Program-made: the position numbers and the translations under genes | The notes under the pieces: model-generated | Databases searched by the model: none | The model's input: the letters and a program-made list of their open reading frames with translations, nothing else | What the model was told of the DNA's origin: nothing | Part shown: positions 30,962 through 35,232 of the stretch, in pieces | Layout: each line of letters begins with the position of its first letter | Numbering within the stretch: position 1 is the first letter of the stretch | Assembly (NCBI GenBank): GCA_041394265.1 | Contig: JAWKIO010000005.1 | Span: forward strand, 603,531-667,530 | Source: Acidimicrobiales bacterium | Lineage (GTDB): Bacteria > Actinomycetota > Acidimicrobiia > Acidimicrobiales > SZUA-35 | Direction of reading: 5' to 3' | DNA: 64,000 nucleotides

Positions 30962-31950
30962 GAGGTGCGGTGCTCGTCGAACGGTGGTCGGTCGTCGAAC
31001 TCGGCGACCACGCAGGCGTGGTCCGATGCTACGACGCCGTCCACCGGTTCTGAGCCCGCGACCCAACAGGCGACCGGATTGCCGGTCGGCTTCGGTCGGG
31101 GCCAGGAGGTGAACAGGTAGTCGAGGCGGCGGCGAGGCCACTGGGCGTCGCTCGAGTGGGGATTGTCTCGGGTCCAGGTGAACCCGTCGCCGTCGCCGCA
31201 GGCCGCCCAGGCGTCGGTGAACACGCGGACGGCGTCGCCGTGGTCGCTGTACCCCGGCGCGAGGCCGACCAGTCGTCGTACCTCGTCGGAATCGGGGGTG
31301 GCGTTGAGATCGCCGCCGAAGATGAGGGGTCGGTGTTCGTCGGGTGGGGCGTCGAGCAACGCACCCAGCCCGCGATGGTGCTGGTCGAGCCAATGGACAA
31401 GATCATCGAGCTGGGCTTGTCGTAGCCGCGAGTCGTCATAGCGCCATTCGAGATGGGTCGTGGCAACGGGTTGTGGCCCGTCGGGGTGATCGAGCAGCGC
31501 CCAGAGTCCGGTGCGGTGAGCCGGTCTGCCGGATCGATCGGGGAGGTTTCGCTGATCGGCGTCGAGCACGGGCCAGCGGGAGAGAATCGCATTCCCGAAC
31601 GAAGTTCGGGACGTGTCAGAGCCGAACGAAGTTCGGGACGTGTCAGAGCCGAACGAAGTTCGGGACGTGTCAGAGCCGAACGAAGTTCGGGACGTGTCAG
31701 AGCCGAACGAAGTTCGGCCGGTGTGAGAGCCGAACGACGTTTGGGAGGTGTGGTTGGTGGTGGCGACCCAGTGCATCCCGAGGTGATCGGCCAGGTCTTC
31801 GGCCTGATCGTGATGATCGGCGGTGGGGCCGAACACCTCCTGGAGTAGTACGACGTCGGCGTCGATGTCGGCCAGCGCCGCACGAATGGCCGGTTGGCGT
31901 TCCTCCCATGGCCCGAAGCGCCACCACAGGTTCCAGGTTGCGACTCGCAT
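30958..31950 (-). CDS. Endonuclease/exonuclease/phosphatase (EEP) family protein with in-frame repeat insertion
   Basis: RVATWN, LLQEV, GNAILSRWP, GGDLNA, RLDY and SDH motifs. Confidence 0.9.
   Translation of the reverse strand: MRVATWNLWWRFGPWEERQPAIRAALADIDADVVLLQEVFGPTADHHDQAEDLADHLGMHWVATTNHTSQTSFGSHTGRTSFGSDTSRTSFGSDTSRTSFGSDTSRTSFGSDTSRTSFGNAILSRWPVLDADQRNLPDRSGRPAHRTGLWALLDHPDGPQPVATTHLEWRYDDSRLRQAQLDDLVHWLDQHHRGLGALLDAPPDEHRPLIFGGDLNATPDSDEVRRLVGLAPGYSDHGDAVRVFTDAWAACGDGDGFTWTRDNPHSSDAQWPRRRLDYLFTSWPRPKPTGNPVACWVAGSEPVDGVVASDHACVVAEFDDRPPFDEHRTS
31595..31746. repeat. 27-bp tandem repeat inside the EEP CDS (4 exact, 1 variant, 1 partial)
   Basis: ccgaacgaagttcgggacgtgtcagag at 31595, 31622, 31649 and 31676; variant at 31703; partial at 31730. 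Encodes (RTSFGSDTS)n. Confidence 0.95.
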
Positions 31951-32168
31951 GTGTCGCCTCCTCCCCTCTTCGGCGCTCGTGGCGCCGGGCCAGGCCGATG
32001 CCGAGTGACGAGGGTACCCCGAAGGCGGAATTGTTTCGCCTGCTCCTTGGTTGGTGCATCCATCGAGGGAATTCGGGCGAAAGGTGTTTCGTACAAGGTG
32101 TGACCGGAAAGGACGAGCCCGTTCCGGTAGCGCTGTCGCCACCGCCCCACCAGCAGAAAGTGACCGTC

Positions 32169-32525
32169 ATGGACACCGAGTTCACGCTTCACCCCGACAC
32201 CGACGTGGCTTGGCAGGACCTCGCCATGTGCAAGGGGGTGACCCATGTGTTCTTCGGTCCCCAGGCGGAGCGTCCCGAGCGGCGGGTCGAACGTGAGGCA
32301 CTTGCGCTCACGTACTGCTTGTCCTGCCCGGCGATCCTGCCGTGTCGGCGCAACGCCAGACTCAACCATGAACACGGCTTCTGGGGCGGCGAGAACGACG
32401 AGCAGCGGGCGGCGGCCGGCTACGCCCCCCGCTCGCCGAGCCGCCGGGCGGTCATCGAGGCTCGTGACCGGTCCAAGCGGACGGTCGAGTACTCACTCGA
32501 ACAGGCAGGTGCCACCGCCCGCTAG
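32169..32525 (+). CDS. WhiB-family Fe-S transcription regulator (WhiB3/WhiD-like spacing)
   Basis: C-x28-C-x2-C-x5-C followed by GFWGG. Confidence 0.85.
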   Translation: MDTEFTLHPDTDVAWQDLAMCKGVTHVFFGPQAERPERRVEREALALTYCLSCPAILPCRRNARLNHEHGFWGGENDEQRAAAGYAPRSPSRRAVIEARDRSKRTVEYSLEQAGATAR

Positions 32526-33571: not shown

Positions 33572-35128
33572 TCAGCCGAGCAGGAGGTCGTCGAGCGCGG
33601 TGAAACGGGCGTCGACGATCGTCATCGAGGCACTCGACCACCCGAGATCGGGATACGCGGCAGGCACCATCGATGATCCCCACCACGGGCTGGTGGGACC
33701 AAGGAGACGGTCGCCGGCAAGTGTGCCACCGACGGCCAGGTTCACCACGAGCCGCATGGGTGCGGCACGGTGCGGGCCCTCATCGGCGGTGGCCGGCCCG
33801 GTCATCCGATCGATCTCGACGCCGTCGATCGACCAGATGAGGAGGCCGGGGCGACGGTCGATCGCAATCGTGTGGGTGCCACCATCGGCGATCGTCGGGA
33901 TGTCGTTGGCGGTCGACGCCGAACGCAGACGCTCGTCGAACCAGTGGACAGAGGTCGACACTTCGGTGTCGCCCGACGTCTCCAGGAGATCGATCTCGTG
34001 ATAGCTCGGCGTGTCGTAGCCATCACACATGCCCGGGGCGACGCAGGCCTCCGCGTCGAGAAGCCAGACCGCCGGCCACAGCCCGCCACCGACCGGGATG
34101 GTCACGTCGACCTCGAGCAGTCCCCAGCCGAAGGTCGCCTGCGAGATGACCATGCCCGAGTCGAACGGCGCTCGATCGACCCGTGGCTCGGGATGGGGAC
34201 TCGCGGTCAAGATGACGCGCTCGTCGGTCCGGGTCACCGAGGTGTCGCGGTACTGCTGCGCTTCACCATTGGTCCAGCCGACCGCACCCTCGGCCGGGGT
34301 CAGCCAGTGGGGCTCGGTCCGATCGAGCGGTCCGGTGATCCCGGCGATCCAGGCGTCGATCGGCCGGTCGGGGGTGAGCGCAAGCGAAGGATCGACGTAC
34401 GCGAGCCTCGACCCCGGTCCGGCGCAGCCCCGCTCCCCGACCAACGGCACGCGGTCGAGACAACCGTAGGTCCAGTCGGCGACCGTTGCCCGGTCGACCA
34501 CTCGATCGAGGACGACGGCGTCGGTCGATGCGCCGGCAACGATCCGAGGCTCGAGCCCAACCGATCGGGCCAGCGACATCACGGCGTCGGTGCGATCGAC
34601 GCTGAGGGTGGCGAGGCGACCATCCAGGCTGCCGCCGAGTTCGACGATGGCAGCGAGCGTCGCCACCCGCTCATCGAGCGGTGCGTCGAGCGACAACGCC
34701 GGCGCGGGCCCGGTGCCGACGATCTCGAAATCACCGACCCGCTCGACCGACTGACCGGCGGCGTAGGCACCCGCCATCGACCGTTCGATGGCGAGCGGGG
34801 TCCCGTCGTCGCTGGGGTCGAAGCTCAGCCGCCAGCCGGTGTCGGTCGCCGTGCCAATGGCCGTGTAGTAGCCCGCGAGCGTCGCGGCAGCGTGCTCATC
34901 GACCCGCTCGACGCGGTGACCGGTCTGTGACAGCAGCTCGTCGGCGGTATCGATCGCACCCGACGACAACACGGGATCGACATCGGCGAAGACCGGGAGC
35001 GTTCGGTCCGTGGTCGTCAAGGCCACGACGACGGCAAGCGCCGCCGACGCGACCGCAATCAGGAAGAAGAGCGCCGAGTGCCGAGAGGGAGTGAGCTCAC
35101 CCTGCTCGTGGGCGCGCAGAACGGTCAT
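33572..35128 (-). CDS. Membrane-anchored GH16 glycoside hydrolase with extra N-terminal domain
   Basis: N-terminal TM helix; WPAVWLL, EIDLLE (E-x-D-x-x-E) and LVVNLAVGG motifs. Start could be up to 35188. Confidence 0.8.
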   Translation of the reverse strand: MTVLRAHEQGELTPSRHSALFFLIAVASAALAVVVALTTTDRTLPVFADVDPVLSSGAIDTADELLSQTGHRVERVDEHAAATLAGYYTAIGTATDTGWRLSFDPSDDGTPLAIERSMAGAYAAGQSVERVGDFEIVGTGPAPALSLDAPLDERVATLAAIVELGGSLDGRLATLSVDRTDAVMSLARSVGLEPRIVAGASTDAVVLDRVVDRATVADWTYGCLDRVPLVGERGCAGPGSRLAYVDPSLALTPDRPIDAWIAGITGPLDRTEPHWLTPAEGAVGWTNGEAQQYRDTSVTRTDERVILTASPHPEPRVDRAPFDSGMVISQATFGWGLLEVDVTIPVGGGLWPAVWLLDAEACVAPGMCDGYDTPSYHEIDLLETSGDTEVSTSVHWFDERLRSASTANDIPTIADGGTHTIAIDRRPGLLIWSIDGVEIDRMTGPATADEGPHRAAPMRLVVNLAVGGTLAGDRLLGPTSPWWGSSMVPAAYPDLGWSSASMTIVDARFTALDDLLLG

Positions 35129-35232
35129 CCCCTCACTATCGACCGTCCGCCGACCAACCTGAGCCAGCGCATCCGTGGTGCCGGGCACCGTCCTCGACCG
35201 CCGCCCGTGGCCAGTGGTCCTAAGGTGAGGCG

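Follow-up and report, generated by a model that had tools for sequence, protein, structure and literature searches.

What is the unannotated region that separates the membrane anchor from the glycoside hydrolase family 16 (GH16) domain in a small group of Acidimicrobiales proteins? The question is raised by a gene in a stretch of 64,000 nucleotides from an Acidimicrobiales bacterium (assembly GCA_041394265.1, contig JAWKIO010000005.1, positions 603,531 to 667,530), the whole of which is called the window here. The gene product is a membrane-anchored GH16 protein of 518 amino acids (aa), P0002, to which all residue numbers refer, and its middle domain of ~145 aa (residues 77-220, window 34469-34900) lies between the anchor and a Cys loop. 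An earlier note on this DNA, in which residue numbers run 20 higher, had seen in the region a catalytically dead LAGLIDADG-like domain, domesticated from a homing endonuclease and reused in an exported glycanase, perhaps for binding extracellular DNA (eDNA) or polysaccharide.

Structural models support a two-lobed LAGLIDADG homing-endonuclease fold for the middle domain. We consider it probable that this is a dead LAGLIDADG-fold module acting as a rigid accessory, glycan-positioning part of a surface GH16 enzyme, and much of our confidence is carried by the fold and the inactivity.

Predicted fold of the middle domain

A full-length AlphaFold2 (AF2) model was built on an alignment of 10 sequences (A2). 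Its mean predicted local distance difference test score (pLDDT) is 77.5 and its predicted template modelling score (pTM) 0.74, with residues 80-220 at pLDDT 84-95. DSSP assigns to lobe 1 the helices (H) and strands (E) H80-91, E92-94, E98-102, H110-123, E128-132 and E135-139; a 10-residue linker leads to lobe 2, with H151-165, a short element at 166-168, E171-176, H177-189, E195-198, E202-206 and H210-217. DSSP does not call the first short strand of lobe 2 (G166-S-L), but a weak internal repeat between the lobes (LSFDPSDDGTPLA / LSVDRTDAVMSLA, BLASTP E 0.1) pairs it with G92-T-A in lobe 1. The small motif residues G86, G92, A159/A160 and G166 would, to judge from the sequence, fit helix packing at the lobe interface.

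Foldseek returned only GH16 matches for the full-length model, and residues 42-272 were therefore modelled alone, giving a core pLDDT of 88-95, a pTM of 0.73 and the same secondary structure as in the full-length model. Searched against a library of 350,542 PDB chains, this isolated model drew LAGLIDADG proteins at every rank from 1 to 32, with probabilities of 0.99-1.00. The top structural match was the WhiA N-terminal domain (3hyj_D, E 2.7e-4, probability 1.0), and S. venezuelae WhiA in its RNA polymerase complex (8dy7_I) was also among the top ranks. About two dozen I-DmoI chains were matched, with TM scores by target of 0.45-0.54 over 176-195 columns; the TliVMA intein endonuclease took ranks 29-30 and I-Tsp061I rank 32. 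The first match outside the LAGLIDADG proteins was EPSP synthase (probability 0.35, TM 0.14), below which came further LAGLIDADG matches, to the PhoVMA intein endonuclease and E-DreI and, with weaker scores, to I-SceI. TM scores by query were lower (0.38-0.45) because disordered tails make up ~85 of the 231 residues in the query.

Among the predicted viral structures of BFVD, the matches were terminases, ribonucleotide reductases, polymerases and helicases, that is, typical intein hosts, and several were named 'homing endonuclease', 'DOD-type homing endonuclease' or 'intein splicing domain'. A different fold in the structure prediction had been set beforehand as the outcome that would speak against the LAGLIDADG proposal; the prediction gave no such fold, the top 32 places in Foldseek all being LAGLIDADG.

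Motifs and the missing catalytic residues

On the minus strand, window 34541-34900 encodes DEHAAATLAGYYTAIGTATDTGWRLSF...APLDERVATLAAIVELGGSLDGRLATLSV...VMSLARSVGLEPRI, the peptides from which the earlier note had argued. They lie within the region that it marked (34540-34900), but the domain ends further on, at about residue 220 (window 34469). In active LAGLIDADG endonucleases the last residue but one of each motif is acidic and binds the metal, as do D21 and E117 in I-DmoI (PMC3384342). In the window protein, helix 1 ends in L84-A-G-Y-Y-T-A-I91-G92 and helix 1′ in L158-A-A-I-V-E163-L-G165-G166, with Ile at position 8 of motif 1 and Gly at position 8 of motif 2.

The family was widened to 18 distinct sequences with genomes of the same taxonomic family. 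Across these members position 8 of motif 1 reads IALALNALAVVGAASANL (I/A/L/N/V/G/S) and is never acidic (0/18), and position 8 of motif 2 reads GSSSSTGGSASTGTYTDA (G/S/T/A/Y), with Asp in 1/18, so that the description of the domain as catalytically dead is borne out. The motif glycines at positions 3 and 9 are near-invariant at 16-18/18 (G86 16/18, G92 16/18, G166 18/18), as are E163 (17/18), W99 (17/18), R116 (17/18) and R130 (18/18).

The most distant of these members (L067, G554:C4:168500-170200) has LATLVELDG as motif 2, with Asp at the catalytic position, and Asn in motif 1. In its LATLVELDG a remnant of the ancestor's active site may survive.

LAGLIDADG endonucleases also have a lysine nearby in each lobe. 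The middle domain has 0-1 Lys, a net charge of -6 to -21 and an isoelectric point (pI) of 4.05-4.96 in 18/18 members; the WhiA LAGLIDADG regions that we extracted have a pI of 6.1-10.7. The W-x-[LIFA]-x-[FLV] pattern of strand beta2 turns W99 towards the core, and the exposed positions that alternate with it are mostly Asp. What characterizes an active enzyme is absent here: metal-binding acids, active-site lysines with a positive sheet, and a location in an intron, intein or mobile gene.

Because of the near-zero lysine content and the negative net charge, nuclease activity and eDNA binding both appear unlikely. An eDNA anchor, in which the fold, though no longer an active endonuclease, would have kept its binding of DNA and would tether the glycanase to biofilm eDNA, could call on DNA binding as the ancestral function of the fold and on dead LAGLIDADG proteins (maturases, WhiA) that still contact nucleic acids (PMC3384342; PMC10243135). 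Canonical LAGLIDADG DNA-contact surfaces are, however, uniformly positive (PMC3384342), while the domain is strongly acidic in every member and lacks the basic counterparts of I-DmoI K43/K130. This charge speaks against the earlier suggestion of eDNA binding, and we regard such an anchor as very improbable.

There is no Hint or intein Pfam match, and the domain stands between anchor and enzyme at a conserved chromosomal position, in agreement with the earlier statement that no intein is visible. An intein remnant was likewise rejected, there being no Hint domain and no insertion in a host protein motif.

Sequence searches and descent

Pfam and NCBIfam scans of each of the 10 aligned members separately found nothing outside GH16, even at E<=10, and a profile of the middle region gave only chance matches to PDB sequences (E > 0.5). 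For hhalign, two profiles were built from genome searches, one from 14 actinobacterial WhiA sequences and one from 28 intein LAGLIDADG_3 segments. Comparison with the WhiA profile gave P 0.029 and 0.014, that with the intein profile P 0.2-0.6, and the reversed-sequence controls P 0.92 and 0.46. The register was the one that the structure predicts: I91-G92 and G165-G166 fall on the D-G of intein ATDGS, VMSLARSVGLEPRI aligns on LSRLLLRFGISARL, and motif position 8 is also set on WhiA's degenerate motif. At the scale of a database, the sequence by itself shows no more resemblance to LAGLIDADG proteins than chance would give, and the motif register is read correctly, without statistical demonstration from the sequence.

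Several points weigh against our reading of the domain. No sequence method was significant for LAGLIDADG families (Pfam, PDB profile, hhalign); the fold rests on AF2 with a shallow alignment (10 sequences); the Foldseek E-values are modest (3e-4 to 1e-2) and the root-mean-square deviations (rmsd) 5-7 Å; lobe 2 has a single DSSP strand ahead of its second helix; and the housekeeping neighbourhood of the gene, where there are no glycan-utilisation genes, gives no functional clue. Some of these would suit a domain that is not a LAGLIDADG relative at all, namely the absence of significant sequence similarity to any LAGLIDADG family (hhalign P 0.014-0.6), the shallow alignment and the rmsd, to which can be added a motif spacing of 74 residues, shorter than that from D21 to E117 in I-DmoI (PMC3384342). 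Yet the matches in two structure libraries are exclusively LAGLIDADG, at probability 0.99-1.00, most of the core exceeds a pLDDT of 90, and the invariant glycines fall exactly at positions 3 and 9 of the motif in both helices. The hhalign registers moreover fit the structure in both lobes (reversed controls P 0.46-0.92), and one distant member keeps LATLVELDG. An unrelated domain is in our judgement improbable.

From the LAGLIDADG-like fold and the motif we infer descent from an endonuclease or WhiA-like ancestor. The term 'domesticated' in the earlier note agrees with the fold and the motif register, but no significant sequence similarity shows the descent that it implies. The organism's own genome has no LAGLIDADG_3 intein endonuclease. 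Neither LAGLIDADG_WhiA (0/41) nor HTH_WhiA (0/41) was found in genomes of the window's class (its own genome, G000, and 40 others; control genomes positive), while of genomes across the phylum 26/41 have WhiA; the whole class seems to lack the protein. A recent duplication of the lineage's own WhiA was rejected as the source of the domain, since WhiA was found in none of the 41 genomes of the class.

Distribution and co-inheritance with GH16

Export of the glycanase, as proposed earlier, is predicted across the family. In 16 of the 18 members a transmembrane anchor or lipobox stands upstream of the domain, the hydrophobic segment being 34-64 residues before it, with a lipobox (LSGC, AVSC, TAAC or IVGC) at the end of several such segments. 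The two members without an anchor are called from late starts. The invariant Cys pairs of the core subfamily also suit an exported protein.

An exhaustive phmmer search with residues 41-275 over 1.84 billion representative proteins yielded ten matches, eight of them real relatives and two due to chance. Seven of the eight are full-length, with an anchor or lipoprotein signal, the middle domain and then the same GH16 domain; the eighth (P0005) is a fragment. A word-indexed search added two more full-length relatives, P0003 and P0004. P0013 and P0014 were rejected as relatives, being low-complexity repeat proteins with multi-stretch chance matches. Relatives are named 'hypothetical protein', and their precomputed Pfam annotation is GH16 only or nothing.

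No stand-alone or differently fused copies were found, even in a search sized for short proteins; the only short match was P0005. This protein ('hypothetical protein R2710_15835', from an NCBI metagenome-assembled genome (MAG) of an Acidimicrobiales bacterium) has 268 aa and is 75% identical to the N-domain of the window protein. Its stretches read as frameshifted versions of the same gene, and the frameshifts are probably assembly or indel errors in a near-identical MAG.

Among 401 genomes sampled across the class there were 2 strong matches to the domain. In one Acidimicrobiales family it is present in 14 of 88 genomes, spread over 7 of 14 genera and including all five genomes of the window's genus. 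When the 88 genomes were searched with the GH16 part alone, the same 14 held a copy at 41-72% identity, and all other GH16 sequences were at <=36%. One of the 14 copies is a pseudogene (G615:C43:4013-5315), in which several TGA/TAG codons interrupt the reading frame, in the N-domain as well as in the GH16 part. The domain family comprises about 20 sequences, all in this one Acidimicrobiales family.

In the window, in G263 and on the contigs that encode P0008 and P0009, the gene is flanked by ferrochelatase on one side and by an ABC1 kinase gene, with or without RidA, on the other; P0011, the most distant member, has a different location, outside that synteny. The domain is an integral, co-inherited part of one GH16 clade. 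Strict co-occurrence and conserved gene position indicate a fusion that is old within the lineage, vertically inherited and never separated.

Proposed role of the domain

The full-length model, with 79 disordered residues and one domain of ~145 aa and another of ~245 aa, reached a pTM of 0.74. As pTM is defined, independent placement of the domains could hardly exceed ~0.5, so the score implies that both domains (~380 residues) are mutually placed, which suggests rigid packing of the LAGLIDADG-like domain on GH16. This score and the strict co-inheritance together are our grounds for proposing a rigid accessory domain. There is a precedent in WhiA, whose dead LAGLIDADG domain serves as a protein-packing module (PMC3384342), against WhiB (PMC10243135).

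We propose that an N-terminal membrane anchor, replaced in some relatives by a lipoprotein signal, would tether the protein to the cell surface. The middle module lacks the features of a nuclease or DNA binder, with no metal-binding acids, nearly no lysines and a strongly acidic surface, and would form a rigid non-catalytic accessory domain packed against the GH16 domain. It would fix the position and orientation of the enzyme over the membrane, and would probably extend or shape the glycan-binding surface of the enzyme. We infer the packing against GH16, the accessory or glycan-positioning role and the endonuclease- or WhiA-like descent.

The domain might instead be an independent carbohydrate-binding module (CBM), with the endonuclease saddle retooled for a helical polysaccharide (beta-1,3-glucan) and swinging on linkers. 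Its position between anchor and catalytic domain is the usual site of a CBM, Pfam finds no known CBM in the protein, the GH16 domain is laminarinase-like, and the conserved W99, R116, R130 and E163 (17-18/18) could form a ligand site. The W99-x-L101-x-F103 alternation suggests, however, that W99 faces the hydrophobic core and not the saddle, the exposed beta2 positions are mostly Asp, and the high full-length pTM suggests fixed packing and not a free module; we think a CBM possible but unlikely. Similar doubt attaches to the bolder proposal that the DNA-cradling beta-saddle was converted to an extracytoplasmic platform that grips helical beta-glucan and feeds the fused GH16 active site. If true, such a saddle would be a new carbohydrate-binding module family, and the first homing-endonuclease fold to act outside the cell on a polymer other than a nucleic acid.

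Docking or oligomerisation would be another use for the domain, which would then bind an envelope protein or its own copy and localise the glucanase, for example for remodelling of own-envelope glycan. The equivalent domain of WhiA binds WhiB, LAGLIDADG lobes are natural dimerisation units (PMC3384342), and the conserved housekeeping neighbourhood and vertical inheritance, with no glycan-utilisation locus, would suit such a function. But no partner gene is conserved next to the gene, whose neighbours are cytoplasmic enzymes, and the two lobes already form an intramolecular pseudo-dimer. We give docking little credence, and retain the rigid accessory domain as the preferred reading.

Comparison with known systems

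WhiA (the DUF199 N-domain, 3hyj; 8dy7 chain I) is closest. Both it and the window domain are monomeric two-lobe LAGLIDADG folds that have lost both catalytic acids and the neighbouring lysines, and both have degenerate Gly-rich motifs (YLRGAFLGGGS in WhiA; LAGYYTAIGT / LAAIVELGGS in the window domain). WhiA also gives the best, though weak, profile-profile P (0.014), and its LAGLIDADG domain has a non-cleavage use in packing on WhiB. WhiA, however, is cytoplasmic, has an HTH (helix-turn-helix) at its C-terminus, binds DNA and has a neutral to basic LAGLIDADG region, whereas the window domain is exported, acidic, without HTH and fused to a glycoside hydrolase, the C-terminal part being GH16.

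With the monomeric LAGLIDADG endonucleases (I-DmoI, I-Tsp061I, I-SceI; TliVMA-type inteins) the domain shares topology, pseudo-dimer layout and motif registers. Unlike them it carries no metal-binding Asp/Glu where the helices end, lacks both an active-site Lys and a basic saddle, lies outside introns and inteins, is not mobile (the synteny is conserved) and is more compact (~145 vs ~180 aa). LAGLIDADG maturases and yeast HO are also cases of the fold recruited for a host function (PMC3384342), but they still act on RNA or DNA inside the cell. The host proteins related to homing endonucleases, namely maturases, HO and WhiA, all handle nucleic acids (PMC3384342).

On the enzyme side, surface-anchored modular GH16 laminarinases (ZgLamC with CBM6; beta-1,3(4)-glucanase 7ww4) resemble the window protein in their ExDxxE GH16 domain, non-catalytic module and surface tether. 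To our knowledge, the accessory modules of GH16 enzymes are beta-sandwich CBMs or Ig-like domains, none with a homing-endonuclease fold. Literature searches found no report of a LAGLIDADG fold in a secreted protein or a glycoside hydrolase, and neither these nor the sequence libraries showed another such architecture, in agreement with the earlier note, which knew of none.

The GH16 catalytic domain

The C-terminal domain is assigned to GH16 by Pfam (PF00722, E 3.8e-08). Its closest solved relatives in a PDB sequence search are laminarinases (e.g. 4crq, E 2.8e-13), and Foldseek matches the full-length AF2 model to GH16 laminarinases in the PDB (E 1.8e-16). The catalytic motif E-[IV]-D-x-x-E is retained in every family member and reads EIDLLE in the translation of the window gene, intact as described earlier. 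The gene product is thus predicted to be a cell-surface GH16 endo-beta-glucanase, of a clade with only ~20% identity to characterised GH16 enzymes.

Two conserved features of this clade are not in the aligned laminarinases: a disulfide-type loop EACxAPGxCxGY before the catalytic strand (window 33980-34045) and a low-pLDDT C-terminal segment GDRLLGPTSPWWGSSxVP (residues 469-489, window ~33662-33724). Both may determine which substrate is used. A second, ordinary GH16 paralogue stands elsewhere in the same genome, outside the window (G000:C5:3299795-3300382, 36% identity, a 434-aa open frame), and shows no match to the LAGLIDADG-like domain.

Gene layout and neighbourhood

The coordinates of the gene and its parts are collected in Table 1. 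A longer open reading frame (ORF) on the same minus strand, started by GTG, runs over 33572-35188 and encodes 538 aa (P0001). The ATG at 35128 is almost certainly the start in use, and the GTG at 35188 probably is not, since homologue N-termini align from the Met of the ATG (MTVLRAHEQGE vs MTVGHEEPEGE) and the collection protein has that form.

Table 1. Features of the membrane-anchored GH16 gene, in window coordinates
Feature	Position	Strand	Evidence
Whole gene: 518-aa membrane-anchored GH16 protein (P0002)	33572..35128	-	ORF list; homologue N-termini; called protein
N-terminal signal-anchor / transmembrane helix, aa 15-37, SRHSALFFLIAVASAALAVVVAL	35018..35086	-	AF2 helix 15-37; Kyte-Doolittle 17-residue maximum 2.84
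Low-confidence linker, aa 38-76, one short helix 58-67	34901..35017	-	pLDDT 44-57
LAGLIDADG-like lobe 1, aa 77-146	34691..34900	-	AF2 DSSP, pLDDT 84-95; Foldseek matches to LAGLIDADG proteins
Motif 1 LAGYYTAIG, aa 84-92	34853..34879	-	Family alignment; hhalign register
LAGLIDADG-like lobe 2, aa 147-220	34469..34690	-	AF2 DSSP, pLDDT 85-94; weak internal repeat
Motif 2 LAAIVELGG, aa 158-166	34631..34657	-	Family alignment; hhalign register
Cys loop CLDRVPLVGERGC, aa 223-235, between LAGLIDADG-like and GH16 domains	34424..34462	-	Alignment; low pLDDT
GH16 beta-jelly-roll catalytic domain, aa ~275-511, laminarinase-like	33596..34306	-	Pfam PF00722; PDB sequence matches; Foldseek
GH16 catalytic motif EIDLLE (E378, D380, E383)	33980..33997	-	Alignment, translation
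Second Cys pair CVAPGMC (C362, C368), loop just before catalytic strand	34025..34045	-	Alignment

The Cys loop is a probable disulfide hairpin between the two domains. C223/C235 and C362/C368 are invariant in the 10-member alignment (the core subfamily), and C223/C235 are missing from three distant members.

At its 3′ end the gene faces a convergent ferrochelatase gene; its other neighbours in the window encode RidA, ABC1 kinase, an acyl-CoA ligase and an EEP phosphatase, and include an ORF with a WhiB domain. This ORF (31344-32525, plus strand, 393 aa) has its WhiB domain only in the C-terminal part, at residues 290-357. It is probably over-extended, since the syntenic WhiB gene of a relative (L018 8464-8919) encodes 151 aa. 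A WhiB-family gene is present here in a genome without WhiA.

Significance

The finding would be another domestication of the LAGLIDADG fold, in an unprecedented compartment and partnership. Its reach is limited by the small size of the family and by a function deduced throughout. A region of ~230 aa that carried no annotation has a confidently predicted, identifiable fold. If our reading is true, the known functional range of the LAGLIDADG fold would be widened beyond nucleic acids inside cells or organelles, and an unrecognised type of accessory module would be added to the repertoire of carbohydrate-active enzymes. These proteins of one Acidimicrobiales family would then be a clear case from nature of a scaffold, once part of a selfish element or a DNA binder, put to use in cell-surface chemistry.

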